64,000 nt of DNA from Lingula anatina (taxonomy: Eukaryota > Animalia > Brachiopoda), in contig CM120648.1 of the NCBI GenBank assembly GCA_051362555.1, positions 4,088,587-4,152,586 on the forward strand, in the 5' to 3' direction. Positions 3,323 to 64,000 of this stretch are shown in pieces. The position numbers were made by a program, and so were the translations under genes. Position 1 is the first letter of the stretch. Each line of letters starts with the position of its first letter. A model generated the notes under the pieces. It was not told the DNA's origin, ran no database searches, and saw only the letters and a list, made by a program, of their open reading frames with translations.

Positions 3323-4043
3323 GTATATCAGATTTGACGGCAGAGACAAAAGGGCCAATCAACAGGGCTAAATAAATCAGGATGTGGGGAATTACATGCC
3401 AAGGACAGGCAAAATTTATTATACACCCAAGTGCTTATTGACGCCAGCAACTCGTGCAATTTATGTTGAATTGAGAGGATCTCTTTTCTCTGCTATCTAA
3501 TGCTAAGTAATATTATTTTAAGGCCTTTTTTCAATTGCTTAATTTCTTTTCTTTACATTGTTTTTTTTCATTTATTTATTGTCAATAAATTTTGCTAAAA
3601 AAACTTATCTACTGCCTATATACAAATAACGATAAAACCTTTAAATTGTATTTAAATAGCCAAGACAATAATTTTTCCGCTTATAGAACTCCACCGACTA
3701 CTACGCCATTTGTCCATTTGACTTCGTTTGCGTCTTGTTTTCATTATTTTACCTCGGACCATCCATCCAAATTACCTGACAGCCCAGCTTGCATAAAAAT
3801 GGATACTATTCATGTCGAGGCAAAGATTATCGTACAAATAGCAACAATGCATCTTAATTCAGCCATTTCATTCCCTTAATAGCACTTGACCTGACCAAAA
3901 ATGGGGACTTGTAATGCAAATTATGGGGAAATAACAAAATCAAAAAACTTGTTTGACATTCAGATGTGACGAGAGTGATATCGTTGTACTTTCAGTAATT
4001 TTTACTGCAGTTTAATTGCCATACCACTGATACACAGTGCGCC

Positions 4044-5099
4044 ATGTTGTCTACGATCTACGCAATTCTGGTTACCCTCTGCCTCCTTCTGGCATGTAGG
4101 CCTACCTCAGTGCGAGCGCAACGGCTAAAACGTCGGTCTCTCGATCCATCTTGCTCTCTCCAACTGGCCGATGACACCCTACCTAGCCGTAACCATGACG
4201 ATGTTGTGGCTGCGGCAGCTAAATGGGCCCCAATGGTGAATTTAGCCGATGGAGAAGAATGGCGTCCCTCAAGCGTTGACTTCTTCTTAAATGAAGTTAA
4301 CTTACGTGGAGGAACACCAACAGATGTAACGTCGGCAACGCTCCCCGTGTGTAACGACGACTGCTATCTAGAAACCAAAGTGGGACTGTCCTGTGCTTCG
4401 TGCAGAGATCCCCCGGTATTTCGTGGCCAAGACCCCGCAGTCGCCCCGGTGTATGCCATCTACGAGGAGACAAACAACACTGTGAGCATAACCTACTGGT
4501 TTTTCTACCCCTACAACCGTGGGAAAAGGGTCTGCATTGGTTACTATGTGGATGTGTGTTGTGGTGAGGTATGGGGACGTTGTTTGTGTGGTAGGATAAG
4601 CACCTGTATTGGCGGATACTCCACTTTTGGGCACCATGTTGGAGACTGGGAACGGGTCGTAATAACATTCAAGGATGACAAACTGTACTCGATATATCTC
4701 TATATCCATGGATCAGAAGCTACTGCACAGTTTGGCGGAGAATTCATTTGGGACGGGCAAAGCTTCAAACAAGGTTCACGCACCGTGTCGCTGACCGAAT
4801 GCAGCCACCCGGTGATTTACTCGGCGAAGGGTTCCCACGGTTCCTGGCCAGAACCCGGGGAGCACGTATACAAGGATATCATCATGGATAAGCTGGTCGA
4901 CTCTTGCAGCGACGGCCAGGATTGGCAAACCTGGACCAACCTGAAGGTTGTCAAGAACACCGGTGCTCCCTTCACTGGCGAGTTCAGCTTCCTGAACTTC
5001 AAAGGCCGCTGGGGAAATAGAGAGTCTGAATGCACACTTCGGACAATCGGGATCGATCAGTGCATCTTGAGTAACGGTCCCACGGGTCCACTGAATTAA
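4044..5099 (+). CDS. Secreted Vps62-domain protein, single exon, 351 aa
   Basis: Hydrophobic signal peptide, RLKRR furin-like site, and the Vps62-family motifs YWFFYPYN, HVGDWE, YSAKGSH, FKGRWG and C-terminal GPTGP. Confidence 0.8.
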   Translation: MLSTIYAILVTLCLLLACRPTSVRAQRLKRRSLDPSCSLQLADDTLPSRNHDDVVAAAAKWAPMVNLADGEEWRPSSVDFFLNEVNLRGGTPTDVTSATLPVCNDDCYLETKVGLSCASCRDPPVFRGQDPAVAPVYAIYEETNNTVSITYWFFYPYNRGKRVCIGYYVDVCCGEVWGRCLCGRISTCIGGYSTFGHHVGDWERVVITFKDDKLYSIYLYIHGSEATAQFGGEFIWDGQSFKQGSRTVSLTECSHPVIYSAKGSHGSWPEPGEHVYKDIIMDKLVDSCSDGQDWQTWTNLKVVKNTGAPFTGEFSFLNFKGRWGNRESECTLRTIGIDQCILSNGPTGPLN

Positions 5100-6129
5100 T
5101 AGAGCGGTTTGATGCATCGCTCTGTCTTCTCAATAGTCTCCTATATGCTTGTACTAATTAATGAACGGATTATTGAAATGTACAGGTATAATAAAAGGGG
5201 TTATTGAAATATATGGCGTAATTTTATTTTTCAATGAAGATCATAAAAGAGTTGAATTGATTTAGTTTTAAATATCATTGAATATCATATGCTTCAAAGA
5301 TACCATTAGTTGGCCTACACTTGCACCCCCCTCCTCTCTCTCTGAAGCTGCTAAACGATAGTTAAATTACCCCCTAACAGCTTTAGTAATTAAGTGTGCC
5401 AGACATTAGAGCGTCTGAAACTGAATGTAATTTAGCGAGAAACCCTTGAAGATGGGTCGATCCCGCTAGATCGTTCTAAGTATGGGAACTGGGTCATTGA
5501 ATGGAGCCTTTTTCCGCGATATTTTTACTCTCATAAATTTAATATTTTTTTTATACATAGTTAAAACTATGCTTTACCAAGAAACAGATCGGGATGTGTC
5601 AAAAATACTACGGTAACGTGCATATATGTTATAACCTCTATGTCAGGACTCGACACTAATTTTTACCTGTCCCGAACAGTCGTTATTGTCGAGCCCAACT
5701 AGCTGTATGTACAAATTAAGTTTTACTTTAAGATCAGATGAAGTGATAAAAAACTCGATTACTCGCTTAATTAATCCACATATAAAATCTGTCAGAATTA
5801 CACACCCAATGAGTTCAGTGGATTGGACGGGCTGTTTAACATTTGAACAATTTTGAGCTATTTCTGAATGACTGAGAATCCTCATCGTACCGATGGTGCA
5901 GATAAGGCACCAAGGAGAGCTCGCCAAATGTTGTCTATCTGCCGTCTCTGCTGCATAATCAGCCCTCCAATATTATCCCCACGCCCTTCCTTAGACGAGC
6001 TATTTCTATTTAGATCTAATTACACTGGACAGGCCTACCAATAATCTTCAACTGGATAAATAAACTTTAATCATCGTTAAAGTAAAATATATATTCATTA
6101 TATATTTATTCCCGACACTAACAGCATGA

Positions 6130-6200: not shown

Positions 6201-7050
6201 TTATTTCCGGTCAGTAGGGCCAGTTGTGTACATTGCATTACTTGTTGGGCTTCGGAAGTTTTATTTAAGAAGAAATCGCATGATTTTTTCTGGGTTTGTG
6301 TACGTTAAAATTTTGAGATTTTTCAAAGTTGGTTTGCTGGTCTATGTTTGATTTTGTGGTTTGGATCACACTTTAGGCCCTTCTGCTTCACTAAAATTTC
6401 GGCTTGGTTTTCCCGCGTTTTGGTAGGTATATCACAATCCGCTAGGGGCGATACAGTAGTAACTATCCAGGGGCAGTGAAGCACTCAGTGAAGTGTTAAA
6501 CTGATTTCGGCCTGCTGACAGCACAGTGACGTGTACATGGTAATCTTCTTTACACGCGTAAGTTATCTTGATTCCTAAGTATTTTATACAATGACGTGAC
6601 ACTTAAAATATGTGTATAAATTAAAATATTGTTAAAATATGTGTATAATTTAAAATATTGTTTAAACATTTAAACTACTCTGAAGATGCTTAAATATTTC
6701 ATATAGCCAAAGTCAAGGACTATAAATTTGGCGACTATTAAATCGGGTGCATACATTTTAAAAACATTAAAACAATCTTACAGTACTATATTATTCCACC
6801 ATAAAGAAAAAATCTAAATGGGTTACAGTATTGAAAACATATGTTAAATCTCCTTAGGGATTCTAACCATTCAAGGTGACAGCCGATCGTGGTACAAATA
6901 GATATAAGATATATAGTATAGTGTAGTATAAACAATGTTTATTATACTTGGGTACTATTGCATACCATGTTGTAAATCAAGCGTTTCTTCATACTCACAC
7001 AAGGCCCCAAAGTTAGGCTTCTAGTATTGTGGAGAGTTGCAGCGAAAGTA

Positions 7051-8561
7051 ATGGATAAAAGAGCCACAAATGACCCAGAAAGCATGGAATATCTCACCGC
7101 AGGCAACATTCAGGTTAAGTCAGAAGCAGAAGTTTGTCAATCATGTCTTGATCATGATATAAAGAATATAAAGAAAGAAGAGGAAGACGACTGCTCCCAT
7201 GGAATTGACTTAGGTATGTTATGTGACTAGACTTGCTACAGAGACACGCACACATGCACATGCACAACACACGCACATACTTGTACTAGTACGCTTTTGT
7301 TAAACATATGGAAACAAGCTTTCTTCAGAGTTTTCATGTATGACCATATTTCTTCCGCACATTGTAATAATAAGCAGCTTGTTACGTCCACTCGCTGATA
7401 GGAACTCCAGTGCACTATTATTCCCCATTGGCAAAAATGTGATATGTACCCTGTAAAATGCAATCCTTAATGTTATGCTATAACCTTACTACAAATTACC
7501 AGGAGCCGAAAGTGACACTTGTTGAAATGTTGGTATTCATTCAAAAATAGCTCAAAATTGTTCAAATGTTGAACAGCCCATGCAACCCACTGAATTCATT
7601 CCATGCGGCGCGCGTGTGTAATTCTGACAGATTTATATGTGGATTAGCGAGTAGGCCTGGTGGGTAACAGTGTGTAATTCTGACAGATTCATATGTGGAT
7701 TAGCGAGTAGGCCTGGTGGGTAACAGTGTGTAATTCTGACAGATTCATATGTGGATTAGCGAGTAGGCCTGGTGGGTAACAGTGTGTAATTCTGACAGAT
7801 TTATATGTGGATTAGCGAGTAGGCCTGGTGGGTAACAGTGTGTAATTCTGACAGATTTATATGTGGATTAGCGAGTACATGTAGGCCTGGTGGGTAACAG
7901 TGCACGAAACTGTTGGTGCTGGGAAGTAATAATGCGGGGGCTTGATAATAGAAATTTATCATAATCTTGCTTGCGGTCCTAGAGTAATGATTGGGGGGGG
8001 GGGGGGGGAGATAATGAGCACTATGGGCCCATAGTGAAGTGGGGGACGGTAAGAGATGATTTCTAATAGTTTTATTACAGCCAAGGGAGGCATGCTCTTA
8101 ATGAAGCCTGCAATATGCAGGGCTGATCCAGTTTGTAAAGAAGTAGTTTTCCTAGTAGGTTTAAGAAGGAGGGGAAGTCCAGTTTAATGGGAGAATTTCA
8201 TTCCATGTTGTTTATTCTAAAGTTGGTGTATGTTCTTAATGATACATAATGGCAGAGAGAAAATTTCTTCATTTTTCATATTCTACCTTTTAAAAAAATT
8301 ACATATGAAGTCAGTTAAATTTTCTGTATTTATAACACATATAAATCAGAATAAACTGTTCCATATCAATTCAGGTTTTCAGCCACAGATTAAAAGGGAG
8401 ATAGAAGGAACACCATACATGGAAGAGATCAGGTCCTTTAAACAATTTCAGGAATTAGGGGTGGAGATCAAAATTGGCCAGCAATTACCAAGATGGAATG
8501 CTTTGAAAGATCAACTACAGTTGAATACACATGAAAAGTTGGCAGAATTCTTGATGGATTT
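7051..8561 (+). CDS. ZNF gene 1, shared 5' coding exons 7051-7213 (ends phase 1) and 8375-8561 (ends phase 2); the second exon encodes the conserved N-terminal module
   Basis: ATG at 7051 (MDKRATND...); donor g|gtatgt; acceptor ttcag|gt; exon encodes IKIGQQLPRWNALKDQLQLNTHEKLAEFLMD; donor tt|gtaagt; phases are compatible. Confidence 0.75.
7614..7902. repeat. Minisatellite, 56-bp unit, ~5 copies
   Basis: Unit gtgtgtaattctgacagattYatatgtggattagcgagtaggcctggtgggtaaca starts at 7614, 7670, 7726, 7782 and 7838. Confidence 0.95.
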
Positions 8562-8840
8562 GTAAGTATTAATACAAAGATTTATGTAAGATCTTATTGG
8601 TTAAATTTGGAAATTTGTGAATGGAAACAGAGTTATTTTAACCTTGTTTCCTTGTGGTTTGATTGATAAATCACATAACAATAAGCAAAAAAAAAAATAA
8701 TAATAATAATCTCACACTAGACTTGACTGATACTGTAGCAGCGATCTAATGGAAAGCTTGATACCACCTATCTTCAGTGGGGATATGAATGTGAGTGACT
8801 CAAGGAATGGTTATTTGACTGACTAGTTCAGATATAGCTA

Positions 8841-9012
8841 CAGGCCTGTAGCCAGCAATTTCAAAAGGGGGTTCTTTTTCTGAAAATGTGTGCCTTTTTC
8901 CATAAAAAACTTCACGTACCTAGATCAAATTTTACCCAGAGTTGACCTTTTCCCAGCAAAAGGGGCGGTTCTTTCAAACCCCCCCCCCCAAACCCCCCTG
9001 CCTACAGGCCTG
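8841..9012. mobile_element. MITE family A, 5-bp TSD AGCTA
   Basis: caggcctgtagccag...cctacaggcctg flanked by agcta on both sides. Confidence 0.85.
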
Positions 9013-9105
9013 AGCTAGGTATCTTCCTGAAGGCTCTGTCCAAGTAAAGATATTTCACCTCCTTTCTCTCATATTTTTATCACTATCAGACATTTTTATT
9101 TTCAG

Positions 9106-9706
9106 CTATTTTAAGCATACAAGTGAGACGGTTTCTCCTCAGTCATCTGAGATTGTTGACCCACCACCAGATAATGGAATCATAAAGAATGAAGACTACG
9201 TACTAGTAAGGTAGGCAAAAATTGGAAATGTTTTTTCTTCACTGAAGTTTATTTTAAGGCTCTGTCCCAGATATCAAAGATACTTTATATTACTTTTCCT
9301 TTTCTTTTATTAATTTTCCTTATATTTTATCCTTTTCTTTTGTCAGACTATTTTTATTATAAATTCTAGCAATTATAAGCATACAAGTGAGACCCTATCT
9401 CCTCAATCATCTGAGATTGTTGTCCCGCCACCTGATAGCAAAATCACAAAGAATGAAGACTCTGTAAGGTAGGCCGAAATTGGAAAGGTTTTTTTTCACT
9501 GAAGTTTAATTTTAGGCTCTGTCCCAGATATCATACATACTTTATCTTACTTTTCATTTATTAATTTTCCTTATATTTTATCAGACCATTTTTATTATTA
9601 TTTCTAGCTATTCTAAACATGCAAGTGAGACACTATTTCCTCAATCATCTGAGATTGTTGACGCACCACCAGATAGTGGAGTCGCAGAGAATGAAGACTC
9701 CGTAAG
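9106..9706 (+). CDS. ZNF gene 1: three tandem paralogous cassette exons, 9106-9210 (105 nt), 9370-9468 (99 nt) and 9608-9706 (99 nt), all phase 2-2
   Basis: Each has a YAG acceptor and an ag|gtaggc donor and is stop-free: YFKHTSETVSPQSSEIVDPPPDNGIIKNEDYVLV, NYKHTSETLSPQSSEIVVPPPDSKITKNEDSV, YSKHASETLFPQSSEIVDAPPDSGVAENEDSV. Confidence 0.75.
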
Positions 9707-9784
9707 GTAGGCAAAAATTGGAAATGTTTTTTTTATTTTTCACTGAAGTTTATGTTTAACTACGAAGAATAGAATCTAACAGTA

Positions 9785-9998
9785 AGACCCCATTTCCAGA
9801 GATTAGTTCGATCTACTTTAGATTGGCCTAACTCCATGGGGGTTCATGCTAAATTGCAGTCAGGCAAGCGGGCACCATAGTTAATTACCCCCTTACAGCT
9901 TTTAGTAGGCGGGACAGACGCTTAAGCCAAGCTGACAGCAATCTAGTGAGACTCCCCACAGGGATAGATCGATCTAAAAATCTATGGAAATGGGGTGT
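9785..9998. mobile_element. MITE family B (TIR AGACCCCATTYCC...); related full or partial copies at ~5340-5495, 14337-14545, 19022-19250, 21482-21710, 22963-23190, 46907-46980 and 60695-60820
   Basis: agaccccatttccagagattagttcgatc...gatcgatctaaaaatctatggaaatggggtgt; the internal 'ttaattacccc...cagct' core is shared by the other copies. Superfamily uncertain. Confidence 0.7.
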
Positions 9999-10681
9999 TA
10001 AACATGTAGCCAGTGACTGCACTTGAAAAGCTTATCTCCAATCACTGATTTCAGTAAATGGTATACGCTGTTCAAGTCAAATTTGTTGAATTGTAGAAAT
10101 TGAAGTAAAATAGAAGTATAGAACTTCAATGACCAGTAATTTTCCCTGGCACTGTCTTACTTTTCTACAATGAAAATGAAGAAATACTAATTATTTTAAA
10201 CAGCAAAATAATTTCACCCCTACTATGATTAAAATGTAGTGATATTAAAAAGAAAATAATGGATAAGGGGGGATGGAAACAGAACTAAAAGCGGTTTTGC
10301 AAGACCCCATGCACAGTGACCTTTAGCTGTTCACAGACTAACACAGAATTTCATGCAATATGATGTCACAGACAATTTTGTTGTTCAAGTAATGTGACAC
10401 ATTTATCTTACTAATAGCATTCTTATTCTACTAGGGACATTTTTGGATAATTATATTATTGTTTGTCATTTACTCAGATCATTAATATAGGTTTGCATGT
10501 GATTTTGTGTGTGATGTTGCATTAGTGTATAAATGTCAATAAAACATTTTTTTCATAAATTCAGCTTTGATGTTGTTCTTTTAAAAATTAACTTTTATCA
10601 TCTTTCCTGAAAGCAAAAGAGTCGTACCACTCCCATACAGTGAAAAAAAAGCTGCACATAAATCTGTTAAGGCCTGTAAAG

Positions 10682-11170
10682 TGTTGTGTATAAGTAGGTC
10701 AGCTTATGACGTCACCATATCGCGAGAGCATGAGTATCTCGAGAGCATTAGTTGAGACAGACGCTGGGAGTATGAACGGATAGGAGACTGAGTTTTGTTT
10801 TGGGACTTTTGAAGGAGAGTATTTTTTTTTTTTTTTTGGAACCTATTTACCACTGAACCGACACTTATATTTTCTACTGGAACTTGCATCGTAATAACTG
10901 TGGGATTTCATCGGACACTTTCACTGAACTTTGAGCCGATTTATCTCCATTCAATCTCCAGTCGACAGATTCACATCGGACTTTCACACAGGACACTTCA
11001 TGCTTTCAGATAGGTTTATTTGTGTATTAAGAATAGCTTATTGTTATTGTCATTAGTTTATTTAGTTTTAATAAAATATTAGAACTTCTTTAAATCTTTT
11101 GTCATTGATTTTTGCTGGCATTGGGTACTCTGACCTGTAACAGGCCATAGAGATAATTAAGGTAGCTACA
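10682..11170 (+). mobile_element. Solo LTR (TG...CA, 489 bp, 4-bp TSD AAAG), Gypsy-like
   Basis: aaag|tgttgtgtataag...ggtagctaca|aaag, with an internal aataaa ~100 bp from the 3' end. Confidence 0.6.
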
Positions 11171-11217
11171 AAAGTCCTTTCAAAATGTAAGAGCCGTTTT
11201 TAAAGAAGCAAGAAAGA

Positions 11218-11381
11218 GCCAGGGGGGGGGGGGGGTTTCAGGGGTTTCAAAAAGACTGCCCCTTTTGCTGGGAAAAGGTCCACTCAGGGTAAAATTTGAT
11301 CTAGGTACATAAAGGTTTTATGGGAAAAGGTTCACTTTTTCAGAAAAAATTTGCATTTTTGAAATTGCTGGCTCAGGCCTG
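11218..11381. mobile_element. MITE family A, one end truncated
   Basis: Internal sequence matches 1431-1605; ends ctggctcaggcctg. Confidence 0.75.
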
Positions 11382-12186
11382 AAAAGATATGCATATCATT
11401 TGGCAAAGTTACTGAAGACATTTTCTTAAACCACTAACAAATTTCTGGTCATGTAGCCTTTTGAAATGTGGCCATTGCTGCACAGTACGTCCTCTGGACA
11501 AATTTTGCTTTGCAAGCGCCATTTGTCTCTTATCTTGTCAGTGGCATGTACAGATTCTCTCAATATTTCTTTTATATTGAGAAAAAAGTGCAAGTCTGAC
11601 TCAAAAATTCAGTTAATTCAGCTATTTTCCAAGTGGAGAAATTGCTACCCTACTCTCTTGTGGTCCCCATATTCTAATACCAATTCAAGGTGGATCTTGT
11701 AAAATTATGCAAAATTTTGGATACCATGACAAGATTTTCTCTTTTGGCATCCATTGTTCTAGCCCTTACATCTGCAAAACTAGAAAAGATATATCCTTAG
11801 CTTCTTTTGAAATTGAATAGGAAATCAGTTGGGACTATTAATGTGATCTTGAACATGGCTTTTGACTTTTCACCAGGTAATGCACTTTCCCAATTCCCTA
11901 TTCCTTATGTGTCCAAATTATAAGAACTTGAATGCAGAAAATCCTGCTGGTGGTACAAAACCTGGTAGTAGTATTGCTGTTCTGATCCTTTTATTCTTAC
12001 CGAGTGAAGACATCTCTTAACACAATATTAAAAAACAAGATATAAACCATATCACCCACTATACTTTGTGTTGACTAGTGCTTGGTAACTATCAACTTTT
12101 GACTGCGTAAATGGCCAATTAGTCTACAGGTGTGATGTGCCTGATATTGTCTTTTGGTAAACTCTTGTCTTCCAGTCTGTTTAAAG

Positions 12187-12330
12187 CAGGCCCGTAGCCA
12201 GCAATTTCAAAAGGGGGGTTCATTTTCTGAAAAAGTGGACCTTTTCCACAAAAACATCATGTACCCAGATCAAATTTTACCCTGAGTGGACCTTTTCCCA
12301 GCAAAAGGGGCGGTCTTTTTGAACCCACTG

Positions 12331-12365
<35 letters not shown>

Positions 12366-12381
12366 CCCGGCTACTGGCCTG
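12187..12381. mobile_element. MITE family A
   Basis: caggcccgtagccag...ggctactggcctg; TSD not clear. Confidence 0.8.
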
Positions 12382-12580
12382 TGAATTAAGTGTCCATTAC
12401 TGTCTACCCCTGTCAATCATTTCTTCAAAACCAACTGTAAGCCTACTAAAACTTTCACATTTTATAGGAACTATGAACATTTCACTATTCAATCTCAGCA
12501 CAAAAAAAGGCAAAAAGAATTACATAAATCCAAAAAGAATTTAAATGTCATTATTAAGTGTTGGCCTTTCTCAATTTCAG

Positions 12581-13481
12581 GCACACTGCACACATCATAC
12601 ATAAGTGTGAAGTATGTGGAAGGCAGTTTAATACAAAACCAAACCTACTTTATCATGCACGAGTTCACAGCAAAAGAAAGTTTAGCTGCAATATTTGTGG
12701 CATGTCCTTCAAACGCCAAGTTCACGCCAAGAATCATAAGCTGTATACACACTCCACAGAAAAGAATTTTGAATGCCCTACCTGCGAGAAGAAATTCAAG
12801 CGTTATGGCAGTATGAAGAGGCATATGAACCTCCATGATGACACACTGTCAGATATCAAGTGCTGCCAGTGGGGATCGAGTTCAAGCGGAGAAGTGGAAC
12901 ACACCCAACTTCCTGAAGAGAACCCATCAACTTTGACTGCTAAGAAACCCAGATATCAAAGGCGATCGATAGTTGCAGATATGTTTCCATCTGATGTTAT
13001 CATGCCTGAAAATTTGTTACCTCCGAAGGTCAATCCTTCAGTTGCCAAGACATTCAAGGAACACTGGAACTGCATAAGGACAAGGTCTTCAAGGGGTAAC
13101 AGGCTGCAAGACTGGTACAACTTTCGACTGACCACCTTTCAGCCAAATGACCTTCGAGACCATCTAGTTCCGATTTTAGAAGAACAGCACTCGCTTTTTA
13201 AAATCAATGTTTCATTTGGTTTTATTTTAAGAAACAGCAAGACAGGAGCCTTGCGATACCAACACACAAGCAGCAACAGTCACTGTATTCTGAAAAAGCC
13301 AGCTAAGATCCAATATCGTGAGGATATCGATGAGATATTTGGAGATATATCTCTTCAAGATATTCTTGGGTGCGCTCAACAAGATCAACCCAGTGCACAG
13401 TGGGTGGTTGAGATGGTCACAAATGTAGTGTTTTATGTAACAAAGTTAAAACCAATACTTAAATATGTCCCTAACAGTTAA
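12581..13481 (+). CDS. ZNF gene 1 terminal exon T1 (type A): 3 C2H2 fingers plus Polinton/adintovirus PolB N-terminal-like domain
   Basis: Acceptor ctttctcaatttcag|g, phase 2; CEVC/CNIC/CPTC fingers; HWNCIRT...QDWYNFRL...FKINVSFGFILRN...QPSAQWVVEMVTNVVFYVTKL; aataaa at 13673. Confidence 0.8.
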
Positions 13482-14033
13482 CAGGCTAAGAATTCTTTCT
13501 GCAAATATAACAACAAAAGCAATGTGTTTGCAGATTATGGCTAAAAGCAAATACAAAATAGTGAATTGTATGATTTATATTACACTCATTAGAACATTGT
13601 CACTGTTAGTATTTGACACTATTCTTGTATCTTGAAAACCACAACACACGCAGGCATGCACCAGTTTGTTTTAATAAATTGAAAATAAGACTCGTTTTAA
13701 CTGACAGTAATTCACTTAAAATCAAACAAGTCCCAGTGTTAAGTTTTTTTTTTTTCATTTTTTTTTTTTTGTAATCATACAGTCTTCTGCTGTGTCATTT
13801 TACTTGAATAAACAAAGAAGTTGCCAAGAGAAAATCCGTTATCTCATATTGCATGGCCTACTGTGAATATGTTTCATTTACTATGCAAAGTTATCATGGT
13901 TGGTCTGTTTCATAAGAGTTACATAAAACATATTGCTATGTTTTTCCTTGCAAACCTAGTGTTATAAAGGTTTAGGTTGTGTAATGTTTCACAATGATTT
14001 AAAAGAATAAATTAATCCAATTGTAATATTGAT

Positions 14034-14270
14034 AACAAGAAAAGCACTCAGAGAGCGCAGACCTCGGTCAAGGCAACAATTTTTTTTTTATTATTATTGA
14101 TTATTGATTGATTGATGATCCGGATCAACACCAAAAACTAATCATCTCTTCCTTGGCGCACTTCTGATAGTTCCTGAAAATTTCATTAAAATTGGTCCAT
14201 AACTTTTTGAGTTATGTTGATGACAGACAGACGAACAGGGGTGAAAACATAACCTCCTTGGCGGGGGTAA
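14034..14270 (-). mobile_element. Non-autonomous Helentron/HINE-like element
   Basis: aacaagaaaagcactcagagagcgcagacctc...acagacagac...aacctccttggcgggggtaa (terminal hairpin plus microsatellite). Absent from the paralogous sites at ~18955 and ~21415, which show the empty site. Confidence 0.7.
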
Positions 14271-14756
14271 TAAAATACTCCTGTTAGCTGCTTGCAGCTG
14301 GTAGCTTCTTACTCCTGCTTTGGTTTGTTGGTTTAAGACCTCATTCCTGTCCCAAAATCAATCTAGAAGGAAAGACCCATCTCCAAGGGAATTCTTGCTA
14401 AATGGCTTTCAGCTTAAGCAGCTTAGATGTCTGTCACACCTACTGAAGCTGCTAAAACAGTTAATTACCTACTAACAGCTTCGGTAGGCATGCCAGACGT
14501 CAGATCCACTAAAGCTGAGTGCAATTAAGCAAGAAAGCCCTCGGAAAGCGTGTTTAGACCAGAGCAATTTCTATTTCATTTTTGCAAGGATCTCACTTGT
14601 TTAACAGACCAATTCCATTTAAGATGGTGTCAGAGAAAGTTACATTTGGTCTGCCAACCAGCTGAAATCAAGCATTTTTTACTCTTCAATCTCGGCACAA
14701 ATTAACCAATAAGAATTTACATGCAAGTTAAAAGTGTGAGCCATTCTCAATTTCAG

Positions 14757-15711
14757 GCACAGTGCAAGCATCATTCACAAATGTGAAGTATGTGGAAAGC
14801 AGTGTGATTCAAAATCAAACCTACTTCATCATGTAGATGATCACCGCAAAAGAAAATTTCACTGCGAAATCTGCGGCATGTCCTTCAAACGCTTAAGTTA
14901 TGTCAAGAATCATAAGCTTTCTAAACACTCCACGGAAAAGAATTTTGAATGCCCTACCTGCGGGAAGAAATTCAAGCGTAAAGACAATATGAAGAGACAC
15001 ATGCGCCTCCATGATGTCACACCTTCAGAATGCCCTAAATGCAATAAGAAATTCAAGGATTATGACAGTTTGAAGAATCACATGCGCCTCCATGATCTCA
15101 AACCTTCAGATATCAAGTGCTGCGAGTGGGGATCAACTTTGACCTCTGAGAAAGCCAGATATCAAAGGCGATCTGTAGTTGCCGAATTGTTTCCAGCTGA
15201 TGATGTTATCATGCCTGACAATTTGTTACCTCCAAATGTCAAGCCTTCAGTTGCCAAGACATTCAAGGAACACTGGAACTGCATAAGGACCAGGTTTTTA
15301 AGGGGTAACACCAAGTCTTCTAGGGGTAACAGGCTGCAAGACTGGTATAACTTTCGACTGACCGCCTTTCAGCCAAATGACCTTCGCGACCATCTGGTTC
15401 CGATCTTAGAAGAACAGCGCTCACTTTTCAAAATCAATGTTTCATTTGGTTTTATTCTAAGAAACAACAGGACAGGAGCTCTGCAATATCAACACACAAG
15501 CAGCAACAGTCACTGTCTTTTCAAAAAGCCAGCTAAGATCCAATATCGTGAGGATATCGATGAGATATTTGGAGATGTGTCTCTTCAAGATGTTCTTGGG
15601 TGCGCTCAACAAAATCAACCCAGTGCACAGTGGGTGGTTGAGATGGTCACAAATGTTGTGTTTTATGTTACAAAGCTAAAACCAAAACTCAAATATGACC
15701 CCAAATGTTAA
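14757..15711 (+). CDS. ZNF gene 1 terminal exon T2 (type B): 4 C2H2 fingers plus PolB N-terminal-like domain
   Basis: Acceptor ttctcaatttcag|g, phase 2; 40 stop-free codons upstream of the ORF-track ATG at 14878 supply finger 1 and half of finger 2. Confidence 0.8.
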
Positions 15712-16371
15712 CAGACAAAGAATTCTTCTTGCAAATATAACAACAAAAGCAATATGTTTGCAGATAATGTCTAAAAGCAAATACAAAATGTACCTTAATC
15801 TGCTGGTTTAAAGAAAATGCACTGAAATGTTATGCTTGTGATAGATTTTGTCTGTGAATATAACATGATGGAAGCATTGTTTTGCAGTTTTGATGACTTT
15901 AGTGTATGATTTGGACTTTATAAGGTTCACCCATAGTTATTGCTAGTTTATGTTTGCTTGTTATTTTGTATTTCATTTACCTTATTTCACCATTTGTCTA
16001 CTTTACCAAATGTAATTAATCTACTAGGTTATTTTATTAAATAAGAATAGCAAAATTTTGGCATCCAAGTCAAACTACATTGGATAGACAGGATATACAT
16101 ATTGTTTATTTGATGTCATGTTTAGAGATATCTTTGTTCAGGAAGAGTTAATTGTATGATTTATACAAAACTCATTAGAACACTCACCATTGGCTTTTGA
16201 CACTGTTCTTGTATTGTGAAAATCACAATGCATGAAGGCATGTACAAGTTTATTTTAATAAATTGTTTAACAGACCAGTACCATTTACTATGGTGTCTGA
16301 GTAAGTTACATTTGCTCTGCCAACCAGCTGAAATAAAGCAATTTTAACTCTTTAAATTCTGCACAAATTAA

Positions 16372-17000
16372 AGTCATAATAACTCTTCGTTTTGGCCAAA
16401 AATTGGATTTTCCTGGAAAAAACGGCAATTATCCCGTACTTACCAATGGCCAACGACCCCATTCCTGCATTCAAAGTTAATCCAGGTTTTTTTTCCTAAA
16501 CGTACGGTTTTTTGTTAAAATCTCTTAAGAGATTTTAACTGACGGAGCTCTCTCTGACATTGCAAAGTCACTGGTGACCTACTTAAAACCGCGGGAAAAG
16601 CAGACAACAACAACACTATATAAGGTTCATGAGATATATTCGTCTTTTTGTTAAAAATGCATTTATATCCGCAATGTGTGCCATTCTGGGCTTTTCGTTA
16701 TCCGACGCACTGTACAAAAACTCGCAACTTACGTCTGCGTCTGCACTAATGCGTTTGGCGCCATGTTATTTTGGTCTCGAATGAACGCGAGAATCCGCGT
16801 GACACCATTACGTCATTAGCAACAAATGCACTTGTCGACCGGAAAAAAGGCATCGTAAGCCCTCTTGACAAGCACAGATTTTAGTTTTCCTACAATAACG
16901 GCCGTTTTAGTGGTAAAATACAATAGAATATATTTCCATGCGTTTTTTACAATGTATTTCATGCGGATTTTTGAATCTCAAAGGAAGAGTTATTATTGCT
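16372..17000. mobile_element. Non-autonomous TIR element with TTAA TSD (Kolobok-like)
   Basis: ttaa|agtcataataactcttcgttt...aaaggaagagttattattgct|ttaa; the empty site cacaaattaaccaa is present in the paralogous units (~14697, 19481, 21942). Confidence 0.85.
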
Positions 17001-17059
17001 TTAACCAACTAGAATTTAAATGCCAGTTGCAATTAAGTGTAAGACTTTCTCAATTACAG

Positions 17060-18044
17060 GCACAGTGCAGGCATCATACACAAGTGTCAAGTATGTGGAA
17101 AGCAGTTTAATACAAAATCAAACCTACTTCATCATGCAGATGATCACCACAAAAAAAAATTTAACTGCGAAATCTGTGGCATGTCTTTCAAATGCTCAGA
17201 TTATGTCAAGAATCATAAGCTTTCTAAACACTCCATGGAAAAGAATTTTGAATGCCCTACCTGCGGGAAGAAATTCAAGCGTTATGACAGTATGAAGAGG
17301 CATATGCACCTCCATGATGACACACCTTTAGAATGCCCTAAATGCAAGAAGAAATTCAAGCGTAATGACATTATGAAAAATCACATGCGCCTTCATGATG
17401 TCACACTTTCGGAAATCAAGTGCTGCGAGTGGGGATCGAGTACAAGCAGAGAAGTGGAACACACACAACTTCCTGAAGAGAACCCATCAACTTCAACTGC
17501 TAAGAAACCCAGATATCAAAGGCGATCGGTAGTTGCAGATATGTTTCCATCTGATGGTGTTATCATGCCTGACAATTTGTTACCTTCGAAGGTCAATCCT
17601 TCAGTTGCAAAGACAATCAAGGAACACTGGAACTGCATAAGGACCAGGTCTACGCGGGGTAACAGGCTGCAAGACTGGTATAACTTTCGCCTGACCACCT
17701 TTCAGCCAAATGACCTTCGAGACCATCTGATTCAGATCTTAGAAGAACAGCGGTCACTTTTCAAAGTCAATGTTTCATTTGGTTTTATTCTAAGAAACAA
17801 CAAGACAGGAGCTCTGCAATATCAACACACAAGCAGCAACAGTCACTGTCTTCTGAAAAAGCCTGTTAAGATCCAATATCGTGAGGATATCGATGAGATA
17901 TTTGGAGATGTGTCTCTTCAAGATGTTCTTGGGTGCGCTCAACAAAATCAACCCAGTGCACAGTGGGTGGTTGAGATGGTCACAAATGTTGTGTTTTATG
18001 TAACAAAGCTAAAACCAATACTTAAATATGACTCCAACTGTTAA
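17060..18044 (+). CDS. ZNF gene 1 terminal exon T3 (type A): 4 C2H2 fingers plus PolB N-terminal-like domain
   Basis: Acceptor tttctcaattacag|g, phase 2, in frame with ORF 17181-18044; aataaa at 18322. Confidence 0.8.
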
Positions 18045-19541
18045 CAAGCAAAGAATTATTTCTACAAATATAACAGCAAAAGCAATGTGTTTGCTGATTA
18101 TGTCTAAAAGCAAATACTAAATGTACCTTAATCTGCTGATTTTAAGAAAATGTAATGTTTTTTGATAGGAGATTTGTCTGTGAATATAATATGATGGAAG
18201 CATTGTTTTGCAGTTTTGATGACCTTAGTGTATGATTTGGACTTGATTAGGTTCACTCATAGTTATTGCTAGTTTATGTTTGTCTGTTATTATATATTTC
18301 ATTTTCACAGATGTTGCATTCAATAAACAGATAAAACTTTTACTGTATCATGAATATAAATTATGGAAGATATACCTCATTTCATAATCTAGGTAATTTG
18401 ATAAATAAAAATAGCGAAATTTGGCATCCAAGTCAAACTACCGTACATTGGATAGGCAGGATATACATCTTGTTTATTTTGATGTCATGTTTAGAGATAT
18501 CTTTGTACAGGAAGAGTTAATTGTATGATTTATACAAAATTCATTAGAATATTGTCACTGGTGGCTTTGGCAGTGTTCTTGTATCATGAAAACCAGTATG
18601 CATGAAGGCATGTACAAGTTTATTTAATAAATTGAAAATTATACGGATTTAAACTGACAATTACTTATTTAAAAGCAAACAAAACCCAGTACTATTTATT
18701 ATTTATTTATTTATTTTTTTTTTTTCATTTTTTTATCATACAGTCTTCTGTTGTGTAATTTTTACTTGAATAAACACAGAAGTTGCCAAGACAAAATGTC
18801 TGGTATCTCAAACTGCATGACCTACTGTGAATATGCAATGTTATCTAGGTTAGTCTGTTTCATAAGAGTTACATAAACCATATTGCCATGTTTTCCCTTG
18901 TATATTGATATGAAGAGTTAGGTTGAATTAATGAATTAATCCAATTGTTATATTAATAATAAAATGCTCTTTAGCTGCTTGCAGCTCTTAACTTCTTACT
19001 CCTGCTTTGGCTTATTGGTCCAAGACCCCATTCCCATACTTAAATTAATCTAGAAGGATAGACCCATCTCCAGGGGAATTTTTCTAAATTGCATTCAGTT
19101 TACCGTAAGCGGCTAAGATGTCTGGCATGCCTACTGAAGCTGCTAAACAATAATTAATTACCTCCTAAGAGCTTCAGTAGGCATGCCAGACATCAGAGCC
19201 ACTAACGCTGAGTGCAATTAAGCCAGAAAGCCCTCGGAGATGGGTGGATCTGGGTATGTGAACAGGTTATAAAATCTGTTTTTTACTACTAACCATCACC
19301 TTTCACCCTCGGGTGGAATGGCAGCAGCAACAGCATGTTTAGACCAGAGCTATTTCTATTTCATTTTTGCAAGGATCTCACTTGTTTAACAGACCAATTC
19401 CATTTACAATGGTGTCAGAGAAAGTTACATTTGGTCTGCCAACCAGCCGAAATGAAGCAATTTTAACTCTTCAAACTCAGCACAAATTAACCAACAAGAA
19501 TTTACATGCAAGTTAAAAATGTAAGCCATTTTCAATTTCAG

Positions 19542-20496
19542 GCACAGTGCACGCTTCATTCACAAATGTGAAGTATGTGGAAAGCAGTTTATTACAAAAT
19601 CAAGCCTACTTCATCATGTAGATGATCACAGCAAAAGAAAATTTCATTGCGAAATCTGTGGTATGTCCTTCAAACGCTCATTTCATGCCAAGAATCATAA
19701 GCTTTCTAAACACTCCACGGAAAGAAATTTTGAATGCCCTACCTGCAGAAAGAAATTCAAGCGTAAAGATGTTATGAAGAGACACATGCGCCTCCATGAT
19801 GTCACACCTTCAGAATGCCCTAAATGCAAGAAGAAATTCAAGGATTATGACAGTATGAAGAATCACATACGCCTCCATGATCTCTCACCTTCAGATATCA
19901 AGTGCTGCGAGTGGGGATCAACTTTGACCTCTGAGAAAGCCAGATATCAAAGGCGATCAGTAGTTGCTGAATTGTTTCCAGCTGATGATGTTATCATGCC
20001 TGACAATTTGTTACCTCCAAATGTCAAGCCTTCAGTTGCCAAGACATTCAAGGAACACTGGAACTGCATAAGGACCAGGTTTTTAAGGGGTAACACCAAG
20101 TCTTCGAGGGGTAAAAGGCTGCAAGACTGGTATAACTTTCGACTGACTGCCTTTCAGCCAAATGACCTTCGCGACCATCTGGTTCCAATCTTAGAAGAAC
20201 AGCGCTCACTTTTCAAAGTCCGTGTTTCATTTGGCTTTATTCTAAGAAACAACAAGACAGGAGCCTTGCAATATCAACACACAAGCAGCAACAGTCACTG
20301 TATTCTGAAAAAGCCTGCTAAGATCCAATATCGTGAGGATATCGATGAGATATTCGGAGATGTGTCTCTTCAAGATGTTCTTGGGTGTGCTCAACAAGAT
20401 CAACCCAGTGCACAGTGGGTGGTTGAGATGGTCACAAATGTTGTGTTTTATGTAACAAAGCTAAAACCAAAAGTTAAATATGACCCCAAATGTTAA
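19542..20496 (+). CDS. ZNF gene 1 terminal exon T4 (type B): 4 C2H2 fingers plus PolB N-terminal-like domain
   Basis: Acceptor ttttcaatttcag|g, phase 2, in frame with ORF 19663-20496. Confidence 0.8.
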
Positions 20497-22002
20497 CAGA
20501 CAAAGAATTCTTTTTGCAAATATAAGAACAAAAGCAATATGTTTGCAGATAATGTCTAAAAGCAAATACAAAATGTACCTTAATCTGCTGGTTTGAAGAA
20601 AATGCACTGATATGTTTTGCTTATGATAGATTTTGTCTGTGAATATAATATGATGGAAGTATTGTTTTGCAGTTTTGATGACCTTAGTGTATGATTTGGA
20701 CTTGATTAGGTTCACTCATAGTTATTGCTAGTTTATGTTTGTCTGTTACTATATACTGTATTTCATTTTCACAGATGTTGCATTCAATAAACAGATAAAA
20801 CTTTTACTGTATCATGAATATAAATTATGGAAGATATACCTCATTTCATAATCTAGGTAATTTGATAAATAAAAAAAGCGAAATTTGGCATCCAAGTCAA
20901 ACTACCGTACATTGGATAGGCAGGATATACATCTTGTTTATTTTGATGTCATGTTTAGAGATATCTTTGTACAGGAAGAGTTAATTGTATGATTTATACA
21001 AAATTCATTAGAATATTGTCACTGGTGGCTTTGACAGTGTTCTTGTATCATGAAAACCAGTATGCATGAAGGCATGTACAAGTTTATTTAATAAATTGAA
21101 AATTATACGGATTTAAACTGACAATTACTTATTTAAAAGCAAACAAAACCCAGTATTTATTTTTTATTTATTTATTTTTTTTTTTTCATTTTTTTATCAT
21201 ACAGTCTTCTTTTGTGTCATTTTACTTGAATAAACACAGAAGTTGCCAAGACAAAATGGCTGGTATCTCAAACTGCATGACCTACTGTGAATATGCAATG
21301 TTATCTAGGTTAGTCTGTTTCATAAGAGTTACATAAACCATATTGCCATGTTTTCCCTTGTATATTGATATGAAGAGTTAGGTTGAATTAATGAATTAAT
21401 CCAATTGTTATATTAATAATAAAATGCTCTTTAGCTTCTTGCAGCTCTTAACTTCTTACTCCTGCTTTGGCTTATTGGTCCAAGACCCCATTCCCATACT
21501 TAAATTAATCTAGAAGGATAGACCCATCTCCAGGGGAATTTTTCTAAATTGCATTCAGTTTACCGTAAGCGGCTAAGATGGCTGGCACGCCTACCGAAGC
21601 TACTACACAATAATTAATTACCTCCTAACAGCTTCAGTAGGCATGCCAGACGTCAGAGCCACTAACGCTGAGTGCAATTAGGCCAGAAAGCCCTCGGAGA
21701 TGGGTTGATCAAAGTATGAGGAGAGGTTCTAAAATCTCTCTTTTACTACTAACCATCATCTTTCACCCTCGGGTGGAATGGCAGCAGCAACAGCATGTTT
21801 AGACCAGAGCTTTTTTTTATTTTATTTTTGCAAGGATATCACTTGTTTAACAGACCAATTCCAGTTAAGATGGTGTCAGAGAAAGTAACATTTGGTCTGC
21901 CAACCAGCCGAAATGAAGCAATTTTAACTCTTCAAACTCAGCACAAATTAACCAACAAGAATTTACATGCAAGTTAAAAATGTAAGCCATTTTCGATTTC
22001 AG

Positions 22003-22936
22003 GCACAGTGCACGCAATCACAAATGTGAAGTATGTGGAAAGCAGTTTAATACAAAATCAAGCCTACTACATCATGCAGATGATCACCGCAAAAGAAAAT
22101 TTCTCTGCGAAATCTGCGGCATGTCCTTCAAACGCTCAATTCATATCAAGAATCATAAGCTTTCTAAACACTCCAAGGAAAGAGATTTTGAATGCCCTAC
22201 CTGCAGAAAGAAGTTCAAGCGTAAAGACAATATGAAGAGACACATGGGCCTCCATGATGTCACACCTTCGGAATGCCCTAAATGTAAGAAGAAATTCAAA
22301 GATTATGACAGGATGAAGAATCACATGTGCCTCCATGACGTCACACTTTCAGATATCAAGTGCTGTGACTGGGGATCAACTTTGACCTCTGAGAAAGCCA
22401 GATATCAAAGGCGATCGATAGTTGCTGAATTGTTTCCAGCTGATGATGTTATCATGCCTGACAATTTGTTATCTCCAAATGTCAATCCTTTAGTTGCCAA
22501 GACATTCAAGGAACACTGGAACTGCATAAGGACCAGGTTTTTAAGGGGTAACACCAAGTCTTCGAGGGGTAAAAGGCTGCAAGACTGGTATAACTTTCGA
22601 CTGACCGCCTTTCAGCCAAATGACCTTCGAGACCATCTGGTACCGATCTTAGAAGAAAAGCGCTCAGTTATCAAAATCAATGTTTCATTTGGTTTTATTC
22701 TAAGAAACAACAAGACAGGAGCCTTGCGATACCAACACACAAGCAGCAACAGTCACTGTCTTCTGAAAATGCCAGCTAAGATCCAATATCGTGAGGATAT
22801 CGATGAGATATTCGGAGATGTGTCTCTTCAAGATGTTCTTGGGTGTGCTCAACAAGATCAACCCAGTGGAGAGTGGGTGGTTGAGATGGTCACAAATGTT
22901 GTGTTTCATGTAGCAAAGCTAAAACCAGTACTTTAA
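22003..22936 (+). CDS. ZNF gene 1 terminal exon T5 (type B): 4 C2H2 fingers plus PolB N-terminal-like domain, with a slightly earlier stop
   Basis: Acceptor ttttcgatttcag|g, phase 2, in frame with ORF 22121-22936 (one-codon deletion near the start). Confidence 0.75.
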
Positions 22937-23382
22937 TATGACCCCAACTGTTAACAGGCTAAGGCCCCATACCCATACACCCCATTCTCATAGATTAGAT
23001 CGACCTACATTGGATCGACCTAAATCCCTGGGGGTTCACGCTAAATAGCTGTCAGCCGGGCGGACACGAAAGTTAATTACCCCTTAAAGCTTGTAGTAGG
23101 CGGGGACGGACACTTAAGGGGGATTATCTGACAGTAATCTAGTGAGACTCCCCGCGGTGATAGATCGATCTAAAAGTTGTGAGAACAGACCCATAGACAC
23201 CACCTGCCTATGTAACAAAACCCAACTCTATGGGGATTCTCACCAAGTCATTCAGCTTTAAAAATTTGCCTCCGTCTTGTGTAAAGGAAAATGCAGAAAA
23301 AGCTGGTGATTATGTATGTATGTTGGAAACAAGAGATTGTCATTCCGTTAAGCTGATTGCTTAGTATAGGGAAACATTCACA

Positions 23383-23668
23383 TCGAGAAGAGCCAAGGTC
23401 TAGTAAGGCTGCGACCTATATATGGTGGACCTACATGAAAGGTAGACCGCTTTATCCATTAATGGTCTCTCTGCCTCACATACGCCTCCCCGCATGTTGT
23501 CCCTGCAGGGGCACACTTATTAAATCTCAGCTCAATTCAACCGGTCAAGGAACAACGCGTGGGGAGGTATGTGAGAGGCAGAGAGACCATTATAGGATTA
23601 GCGGTCTTCCTTTCAAGAAGATCCACCATATTCGGGTCGCAGCCTTACTAAACCTCGACTCTTCTCGA
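23383..23668. mobile_element. Foldback/MITE with ~125-bp imperfect inverted repeats
   Basis: tcgagaagagccaaggtctagtaaggctgcgacc...ggtctctctgcctcacatac pairs with gtatgtgagaggcagagagacc...ggtcgcagccttactaaacctcgactcttctcga. Confidence 0.75.
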
Positions 23669-24890
23669 CGTGAATCCTCCCATTCAGGTTTTTAAAAAAT
23701 TGGTCTCATCCTCGTGTTAAGTGAAATGCAGAAAAAAAAGCTGTTGATTACACAAGTATATATGTTGGAAACAAGAGATTGTCATTCCGTTAAGATGATT
23801 GCATAGTATAGCTACGGTAAACATGTGCATGAACATTCAAGTTTTAACTTTGCCAGACTTGGTCTTATTGCTGTGGCATAACATCAGTAGCAATGACATC
23901 TATATTTATCATATTTGCATAGTAATAATGCACACATCTCTGTTAAGTTTTGATTTTGATTTCTTAAAGGTATTCATATGTCACACATTTTTTAATGTCT
24001 CGGGCAGGAATTTTTTTTTATTTTTTATTTATTTATTTATTTATTTTTTTTGTAAGTATAACTTGAGGATGCTCCCTTTTGGTATGTGATGAGCTGAGCA
24101 ATTCATTTCTTTGCTCCACCTGGTTTTCCTGCTGTAAAACAAATTGTCAAAGGCTTTAAGAGGAGTCTCTTATTGTGCAGTCGAACAGGATAGTATTTCA
24201 ATCAACATTGCTCAAAATTTTGTACTGACAGAAATGTGTGTTCATCTTTTAACATCTCTTCTCAATTTGTTTGTACAATTGAATGGAATAAAGCTGCCAA
24301 CTGGCATCCACTCTACAGAATCGACGCATATATGTAACATTGGAAAGTTGAAGCATATTGCTCTAGGAAATGTTATTATGGATTATCTGAATTGTAATTG
24401 GTTTTATGTGAAAATTATGCTGTTTTTATGATCTTATTTGTAATTGGACAAAGCAAAGTGTATATGACCTATCAAATCATTATAAAACACAACTCGTGCA
24501 AAACTCCAGGTCCAATCAATTTCATATAAGACACTAACTTAAGTGCCGTCTTTATTTTTAATAACAAATTCACTCTTCACATCTAGAACTGTGCGCAATC
24601 CCCAAATAGTTAGACAACAACCAAGTCATACATATTTTAGGGGTGTATTATTCAATCAAATGTTGGAAATGTAGTATTTTTAATTTTTTTTATCAAATAC
24701 TGTCAAACGCATCATGTTCATGTGACCAATGGTTTTAAGGGAGCTTTTATTAACATAAAAACAAATCTTCAAACTTTCAATAAAGTAAAAAAATAAAATA
24801 GAATAAAAATAAAATGTATAATTTTGTTCATGCAAATTACGCACTTCTTGTTTATGATATAACTGGTGCTAAGTAAATTCACTTCATAAT

Positions 24891-30468: not shown

Positions 30469-30939
30469 TCATACAAAATGTATAAACATATAGTCCACGA
30501 TATTGAATTCATTGATACTTACATCTGAGTTCTGGACAAGGGGAAATACAACTTCTTGGCCCACATCTGGAACACAGTTTCCTACCACGATGGCTTTTCT
30601 AGTCCTACTCTCCGTCGCTTCGGCCCATGTCGCACTTGAAATACTGTTTGAAGTTCGCCTGGTTTTAACCGTTTTGCGTGACTTTGGTAAATCAACTGAT
30701 GGTACTGCATCAATAGAATTACTATCTTTCCTGTTTGGCTTTCCGGATTGGAAGTGACAGCCACAGACTTTGAAGTTGTCAGTTATATCTTTCAATGAAA
30801 TATCCGCACGACCAGTGGCACTAATCCATAACAATTTCGAACGTCTGTCCTTTGGAAATACAAAAAAACTACAAACATTGTCTTTTCTACCTCTCCGGTG
30901 GCTGCAGTTATACACGCAGCAGTTATCATGGCCACCCAT
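30469..30939 (-). mobile_element. THAP-domain ORF, probably a truncated transposase 5' end or a stand-alone THAP exon
   Basis: MGGHDNCCVYNC...FFVFPKD...W...VCGCHF...DAVPSV is the C2CH THAP signature with an AVPT-like box; no intact DDE domain is visible downstream. Confidence 0.7.
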
Positions 30940-44405: not shown

Positions 44406-44673
44406 ATTACTGGAGACACTGTAAATTATATAATCAGTATGGCGAGGATAATGAATTCTGTGAAATGGCATCATGTAGTGCATAACAATTTCCCGTATTA
44501 AAAGCCAAATGACGATTTTGACAAGATTGCTAAAGGACACCTAAGACGAAAATAATTATAATGCGTTGTATGGTCGAATATAAGCATGATTATTTCAGAT
44601 TCAATTTAGTTGCTTCTTGTATGAGCACCCGAAGTGAGCTGAGACATAAAGGTAAGCAGGACGGTTTTAAAAG

Positions 44674-63858: not shown

Positions 63859-64000
63859 GTGAGTGTCCTGTGCTGAAAAGCAAGTTTTCACTATGGCTGG
63901 CGTTGAGCTCATAGATTCTCGAACCGCAGGCTTTTAAGGTTATAACAGTTTTGGCTCAGACTGTATGTACATTGAATTTTATTTTATTTTTATTTATTTA

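Follow-up and report, generated by a model that had tools for sequence, protein, structure and literature searches.

What kind of gene places five similar terminal exons, one behind another, downstream of a single set of 5' exons, and where did those terminal exons come from? The question is raised by a locus of the brachiopod Lingula anatina at 7-23 kb of a 64,000-nt stretch of contig CM120648.1 (positions 4,088,587-4,152,586, assembly GCA_051362555.1), referred to here as the window, which among database proteins matches the L. anatina model XP_013416348.1 best. With a probability of roughly two in three, we consider this locus to be one expressed gene in which cis splicing joins the shared 5' exons to one of five last exons taken from the front end of a Polinton polymerase. 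A preliminary description of the locus as a variable-cassette zinc-finger gene had overlooked this origin: judged by sequence comparison, the variable exons match the finger and terminal-protein front of the Polinton polymerase. The exons are as follows, with the evidence for each.

6501..6539, + strand: candidate non-coding first exon with a GT donor at 6540; five of five molecules of RNA run X1 end at 6501, and no joint is listed
7051..7213, + strand: E1, coding part; ATG, acidic, 54 codons, phase-1 donor; joint 7213->8375 and match to XP_013416348.1
8375..8561, + strand: E2, constant module with a ZNF692-like N-terminal motif, phase 1 to 2; joints and sequence
9106..9210, + strand: C1, 105-nt symmetric exon; joint 8561->9106
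9370..9468, + strand: C2, 99-nt symmetric exon, copy of C1; sequence and RefSeq model, low sense depth
9608..9706, + strand: C3, 99-nt symmetric exon with the last shared donor; sequence, and joined to T4 in the RefSeq model
12581..13481, + strand: T1, three C2H2 fingers and a terminal-protein-like domain, almost silent; sequence and RNA depth
14757..15711, + strand: T2, four fingers and a terminal-protein-like domain; sequence, about 19% of T depth
17060..18044, + strand: T3, four fingers and a terminal-protein-like domain, modelled part 17505-18029; sense depth and model
19542..20496, + strand: T4, four fingers and a terminal-protein-like domain; about 7% of T depth and RefSeq match
22003..22936, + strand: T5, four fingers and a terminal-protein-like domain, six residues shorter, most used; about 49% of T depth and RefSeq match

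Self-comparison of the window resolves five direct units at 12.5-23 kb. The T acceptors at 12581, 14757, 17060, 19542 and 22003 are spaced 2176-2482 nt apart and all five read (t/a)cag|GCAC. The shared exons end in donors at 8561, 9210, 9468 and 9706; every donor from E2 onward and every T acceptor is in phase 2, and the frame that begins with the ATG at 7051 stays open to the stop in all five joins, giving proteins of 517-545 amino acids (aa). When 9707-24800 was searched with blastn-short and tblastn, neither the exons E1, E2 and C1-C3 nor the 750 nt preceding E1 turned up a second time. The first methionine in each T exon is residue 40-41, within finger 2, and an in-frame stop lies 6-8 codons 5' of the acceptor; we therefore rejected five stand-alone genes starting at MSFK, whose methionine is the one within finger 2. 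In all of these respects (tandem units with conserved acceptors, stop-free exons of one phase, no promoter or 5' exon between units, annotated start codons inside a finger) the preliminary description was borne out, and AATAAA is indeed found where it had been placed, after T1 (+192), T2 (16257), T3 (+278) and T4 (+290). A 78-nt block behind the stop, containing AATATA, is conserved from T1 to T4. Immediately 3' of the T5 stop a dispersed repeat has been inserted in place of that common 3' block, and a sequence scan for five hexamer variants gave no match within 350 nt of T5. Two points of the description hold in part: the units have the exon layout it proposed, while their spacers contain dispersed repeats besides the intron tail, exon and 3' untranslated region to which it had confined them, and the exons C1-C3 that it called cassettes are symmetric, their skipping being putative.

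With short flanks included, the tandem units are 80-95% identical, and spacers S34 and S45 are 95% alike. All five internal coding indels are multiples of three; of the 35 gaps that three spacer comparisons gave, 7 are (Fisher p=0.0012; p=0.004 without the 81-nt finger repeat), so that frame-kept coding indels exceed chance. An assembly artefact is ruled out, because the copies differ by 5-20% and carry distinct reads.

Each T exon encodes three to four C2H2 fingers, a linker and a 133-residue domain that belongs to no convincing Pfam family. The variable exons had been described as arrays of DNA-binding fingers; the C2H2 fingers are there, but about 40% of each exon is a separate folded domain. 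This domain has 867 relatives at E<=0.001. Among 21 long relatives chosen from 150 listed, six have DNA_pol_B_2 downstream (five above the Pfam cut-off), and the domain is N-terminal in the protein-primed polymerases P0080, P0090, P0100, P0153, P0174, P0117 and L035. C2H2 fingers lie upstream of it in 79 of 102 fetched relatives with more than 60 residues there. Where relatives reach the end of the domain, 90 of 144 run on, 50 of these into a Cys motif that by its position may be the vOTU site; Polinton pPolB, as far as the accessible part of the report describes it, has a terminal-protein domain (D1) followed by a vOTU domain (D2) (10.1101/2024.03.18.585575). Related proteins also led to 51 metagenome loci. 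At one, L035, such a polymerase adjoins open reading frames (ORFs) for a Pox_A32 ATPase and an rve integrase, and DNA_pol_B_2 is present at L007 and L022; no capsid was recognised in the 20 frames scanned, out of 45 long ones at the larger loci. Relatives with a named source belong to Porites, Actinia, Exaiptasia, Branchiostoma, Patiria, Diadema and Liolophura. Against the window, full polymerases align solely over the fingers and the domain (six polinton-type proteins, three of them full-length). Scans of viral contigs found no relative; for the domain, the ESM Atlas gave no usable match and a sequence search of solved structures returned nothing. On these comparisons we regard derivation of the T domain from the front of a polinton polymerase as nearly certain.

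The predicted structure bears on the same question. According to the accessible part of 10.1101/2024.03.18.585575, the N-terminal domain of the Polinton polymerase is a terminal protein with a little-finger fold, its linking residue lies in the loop before the last strand near Pro or Gly, and the little-finger domain binds DNA in Y-family polymerases; zinc fingers are not mentioned in that part. Our domain model, built from 58 sequences, has a mean predicted local distance difference test score (pLDDT) of 88.7 and a predicted template modelling score (pTM) of 0.84 (a model without an alignment reached a pLDDT of 34 and was not used). Its best solved matches in Foldseek are Y-family polymerases (best E=3.6e-3), with model residues 52-173 aligning to little-finger residues 241-344 of Dbh/Dpo4 (Z 5.1-5.6, root-mean-square deviation about 3 A, 90-95 residues), and its best viral match is a C2H2 protein of Drosophila-associated adintovirus 2 (E=2.6e-5). 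The model thus shows a little-finger/PAD fold at moderate Z. Tempering this, the Z-scores are middling, two unrelated enzymes ranking first at 5.9. A hydroxyl residue occupies the predicted linking column in 53 of 55 homologues and is absent there in the host copies; these have likely lost priming, though a serine adjoining that position leaves some doubt. The three host rows aligned retain 20 of the 24 columns that 80% of homologues conserve.

The T exons stop at the end of the domain and include no protease, exonuclease or polymerase part, hence no complete protein-primed polymerase, and the T proteins are unable to replicate DNA. Nor is the locus an intact polinton, a candidate we rejected. 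Stop-to-stop frames of at least 100 codons within 7-23 kb are E2, T1-T5 and one frame overlapping T1; no integrase, ATPase, protease or capsid gene is among them, decayed remnants not having been sought by profile. Self-comparison gives direct tandem units with shared host-type spacers, no search having been aimed at terminal inverted repeats or target duplication.

Whether the fingers share the origin of the domain is less clear-cut. It is possible, and compatible with the splicing layout, that the Polinton gave only the domain (perhaps with finger 3) and that the other fingers came from a host last exon, although we think this improbable. In its favour, and counting against a wholly Polinton-derived exon, a profile test whose cellular set is biased toward T3 look-alikes assigns just 5 of the 19 T fingers to the polinton type; in this same biased test finger 3 is polinton-type in four of five copies, and fingers 1, 2 and 4 are mostly cellular. 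Neighbouring genes with an E2-type module also end in ordinary C2H2 exons. Against it, a single exon holds fingers, linker and domain in the order known from polinton polymerases, and they form one continuous alignment with P0060 (residues 54-372, 33%). Moreover, TGEKP-type linkers number none in the T fingers versus three in the neighbours, and a helix start with Arg is more frequent in the T fingers.

In a quick tree of 65 rows, which covered 60 of 126 qualifying relatives and left out P0058, the five domains form one clade among polinton-type rows, with short tips, a stem of 0.87 and a Shimodaira-Hasegawa-like approximate likelihood ratio test (SH-aLRT) support of 100. A single clade with short tips argues for one capture followed by local copying. 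The five T exons fall into two types, T1 with T3 and T2 with T4 and T5, and conflicting sites suggest conversion between units. At T4 and T5 there are also mosaic-looking alleles that would fit such gene conversion: T5 RNA reads bear T1-type bases at three places, including 22813-22822, and the RefSeq T4 bears a T5-type motif (20400-20460).

How the captured exon came by its acceptor may be read from the elements themselves. At six of eight related element loci, which are all near-copies, the polymerase frame begins immediately after an AG and finger 1 is preceded by no methionine, at these positions:

L003:3034
L005:2666
L007:5329
L008:1056
L011:6288
L012:990

Such frame starts suggest that these elements bring an acceptor with them, and the finger-terminal protein-polymerase genes of the elements are probably spliced to an upstream leader. 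The element AG site is unlike the host acceptors in phase and place, and the pyrimidine filter did not flag it. Between two further loci (L026:742 and L025:4226) the likeness starts at a AGTAGTAGT run, likely an element end, that precedes the polymerase frame by about 2 kb.

The pattern of selection within the T exons was measured over pooled, non-independent pairs of the five paralogous exons only. The ratio of proportions of non-synonymous to synonymous differences (pN/pS) comes to 0.27 for the domain and, among the fingers, to 1.09 in the helices, 1.31 at contact positions and 0.62 elsewhere (helix versus domain, Fisher p=0.013; contact versus other finger columns, p=0.04). Purifying selection acts on the domain, and the contact residues are relaxed or mildly diversifying. 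Compared with the rest of the finger, the helices show a weak excess (helix versus other positions, permutation p=0.04-0.09; Fisher p=0.54), which counts against our reading. A rival is a gene of the same layout and origin in which the array is young and redundant, all copies doing one job, the fingers drifting under relaxed selection and T1 (perhaps also T4) decaying. The near-silence of T1, a helix pN/pS near and not clearly above 1, the 95% likeness of S34 and S45, and the signs of conversion are all expected under such redundancy. Yet all five frames and acceptors are intact, T1 compared with the other copies has a domain dN/dS of 0.27-0.43 at dS 0.15-0.22, and variation at contact positions is double that at the remaining finger positions; we judge redundancy unlikely.

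Expression of five alternative ends from one gene was addressed with six RNA runs, poly(A) or unspecified, labelled Lingula anatina, of which 6-25% each was read, in two read sets: X1, X4, X7 and X2, dominated by repeat-derived reads, and X1, X2, X3 and X5. Joints were listed from three reads in one run upward, and the first set had 36 joints beyond those listed; depth over the T exons was counted at 97% likeness. The E1-E2 joint 7213->8375 has 11, 0, 3 and 4 reads in the first set, and the E2-C1 joint 8561->9106 has 0, 2, 4 and 1 in the second. E1-E2 and E2-C1 are spliced, and T2-T5 are transcribed in the sense direction, T5 accounting for about 49% of T sense depth, T3 for 25%, T2 for about 19% and T4 for about 7%. 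In their 5' halves, T3 and T5 are distinct enough from every other copy for safe read assignment; the unique half of T3 has a sense depth of 1.1-2.6 in all four runs of the second set, while T5 has sense reads in three of four and T4 in two of four. Ambiguous windows number 28 of 81 in T2 and 22 of 81 in T4, and T2 reads are partly ambiguous with T4. Depth over T1 is 0 across 12787-13403 in all four runs of the first set (X1, X4, X7 and X2), with about one read in X3. The suspicion that only T1 is ever spliced, the other copies being silent duplicates, is thus contradicted: it is T1 that is close to silent, T3 and T5 have reads in their unique parts, and T2 and T4 have fewer.

Because the unique spacer bins contain no reads, the T reads are not intron background. 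Moreover, summed T 5'-half depth is close to E2 depth in each of four runs (4.6/4.8, 5.7/4.5, 8.8/6.9 and 1.2/1.2, on small read numbers), which is what transcripts made of E2 and a single T exon each would give. Alternative choice of the last exon, as first proposed, thus gains from the sense reads of T2-T5 and from this balance, and loses from the junctions. Several observations stand against it. Among the joints listed, none leads from E2 or C1-C3 into any T exon; C1-C2 and C2-C3 joints are likewise absent. C2+C3 depth (0.6, 2.8, 2.6 and 0) falls below E2 depth (4.8, 4.5, 6.9 and 1.2). No sense depth falls in the bins behind T3 and T4, leaving use of AATAAA there putative and suggesting that 3' ends may lie closer than those sites. 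Finally, the annotated C3-T4 join comes from a model that also chains T4 to T5. We infer the join of shared exons to T exons, and consider the overall layout, shared exons leading to one of five T exons, highly probable.

The lack of a C-to-T joint among those listed could instead mean that the units are transcribed separately, each with its own short first exon, or trans-joined as in mod(mdg4), where trans-splicing of the variable 3' exons is established in the accessible part of the source (PMC6237743). This is very improbable: the unique spacers are without reads (a weak argument by itself against trans-splicing), no start codon precedes finger 2, and summed T depth approximates that of E2. 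Trans-splicing had also been raised as an option in the preliminary description; nothing points to it, and since the units are collinear on one strand, cis splicing suffices.

The RefSeq model is both a support and a complication. XP_013416348.1, the closest database protein at 858 aa, runs E1-E2-C1-C2-C3, T4, a 13-residue linker and T5; T4 is identical to its first repeat at 312 of 317 residues and T5 to its second at 307 of 310. An independent annotation thus joins C3 to T4. No Lingula isoform of 179-573 aa is among 57 database matches, the chained model being the only one. That the units are really chained in one transcript through cryptic donors before the stops, as this model was built, is scarcely credible and was rejected: its linker maps to a 38-nt piece near 20673 inside a stretch (20525-21013) of zero depth in all four runs, making the chaining likely a model artefact, no T-to-T joint is listed, T4 and T5 differ about sevenfold in depth, and each unit retains its own stop.

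The 5' part of the gene is of a different descent. E1 and E2 match no Pfam family, a solved-structure sequence search for E2 gave one chance-level ribosomal match, and the ESM Atlas returned eukaryotic clusters only. E2 shares 16 of 31 residues with the bird ZNF692-like protein P0056 (E=1e-8 pairwise); a family scan of P0058 gave only finger-type families and a weak DUF3704. As a tentative idea, E2 may be a ribbon-helix-helix-like dimer. E2-type exons recur three times in the window:

27112-27302, - strand: E2-type exon upstream of C2H2 frames at 24891-26438 (-)
34102-34289, + strand: E2-type exon upstream of C2H2 frames at 35.6-38.4 kb (+)
40361-40623, + strand: E2-type exon upstream of C2H2 frames at 41093-42913 (+)

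All three share phase-1 to phase-2 splice sites, and each precedes ordinary C2H2 frames; recurrence in neighbours with identical phases argues that the 5' part is host-derived. The window thus holds four clustered host genes whose N-termini carry a ZNF692-like motif.

Taken together, the one-gene reading would imply the following course. A host gene of the local E2-module zinc-finger family would have gained a polinton polymerase exon behind a phase-2 donor, cut off ahead of the protease and polymerase parts, and unequal crossing-over would have multiplied exon, acceptor and 3' end to five. Polymerase II would read through the array, competition among acceptors and 3' ends attaching one T exon to the last shared donor, with usage in these runs in the order T5 > T3 > T2 > T4 >> T1. 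The product would be a non-catalytic DNA-binding regulator in which the fingers set the sequence, the little-finger-fold domain grips DNA and the E2 module supplies protein contacts. If KRABINER and CSB-PGBD3 are a guide, polinton ends and their relics would be the most likely first targets, although action of the T proteins on polinton DNA today seems doubtful to us. Still less probable is a defence gene, in which a primer-less end-recognition head comes in five splice-selected variants whose helices track polinton families, the proteins serving as decoys that bring silencing to the ends. If true, this would be a domesticated terminal protein with a diversified restriction repertoire against a DNA-virus-like element.

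Drosophila lola is a variable 3' exon locus. Like lola and mod(mdg4), the Lingula gene has a constant 5' part with spliced shared exons and several same-phase variable last exons that carry DNA-binding modules and lack a start or 5' exons of their own. This likeness, drawn already in the preliminary description, holds for the layout and not for the BTB/POZ domain, which a family scan of E1 and E2 did not find in the constant part, nor any other family. Where those loci have dozens of old units, the five here are young, 80-95% identical and collinear; their variable exon corresponds to the front of a polinton polymerase, and there is no sign of separate promoters.

A second comparison is with host-transposase fusions, among them KRABINER (10.1101/2020.05.07.082677) and CSB-PGBD3, in which the element is an alternative 3' terminal exon (PMC2268245); in the accessible parts of both sources such fusions are described as conserved under selection, with a defence role speculated. 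As in those, the captured part is under purifying selection, here among the five paralogous exons only. A host regulatory exon would likewise be spliced to the DNA-binding part of a mobile element, a join that the RefSeq model has (C3-T4) and the listed read joints do not. Unlike in those, the captured part is a replication-initiation module, not a transposase, and it has been multiplied to five alternatives. Without BTB and without a transposase, the gene is a member of neither class. To Polinton/Maverick (adintovirus) pPolB D1 it is linked by where the domain sits, by the little-finger fold, by a Pro in the loop ahead of the last strand and by upstream C2H2 fingers, which many relatives also have; unlike pPolB, the T exons end after the domain, lack the linking hydroxyl at the predicted column and are expressed from host 5' exons. 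With ZNF692-type proteins it shares the 31-residue motif ahead of C2H2 fingers, orthology being putative.

Loci with variable last exons are known, and so is transposase capture; at this locus the two meet. In the open-licence literature (without subscription papers and bioRxiv supplements) we found no report of the locus or of a domesticated polinton terminal protein, and the available main text of 10.1101/2020.05.07.082677 does not contain the words 'Polinton' or 'Maverick'; within that literature the captured class, the finger and terminal-protein front of a polinton, would be new as a domesticated part. If our reading is true, the sources of new transcription factors widen from transposases to viral replication primers, and the host owns a DNA-binding protein with swappable virus-derived heads. 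The locus also offers a natural stand-alone form of a domain so far seen solely in models, and a lola-like layout at a young stage.

Other features of the window are of lesser bearing. Ordinary neighbours are a Vps62-like frame (3999-5099, +), a rhodopsin-family receptor (44671-45813, +) and a TTI1 exon (63430-63876, +). Between two E2-type genes lies a THAP-domain frame (30469-30966, -), possibly another captured transposon domain, and several direct repeats of 70-600 nt and 75-92% identity at 31084-33838, before the 34-kb gene, may be repeated 5' exons or promoter pieces. Dispersed, partly palindromic repeats occupy 8841-9012, 9787-9996, 11217-11384, 12187-12349, 14268-14545, 16375-16970 and 22979-23290, and most RNA reads fall there. 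Intron 1 contains about five head-to-tail copies of a 56-nt unit at 7614-7902, with a related copy on the opposite strand at 5772-5871.

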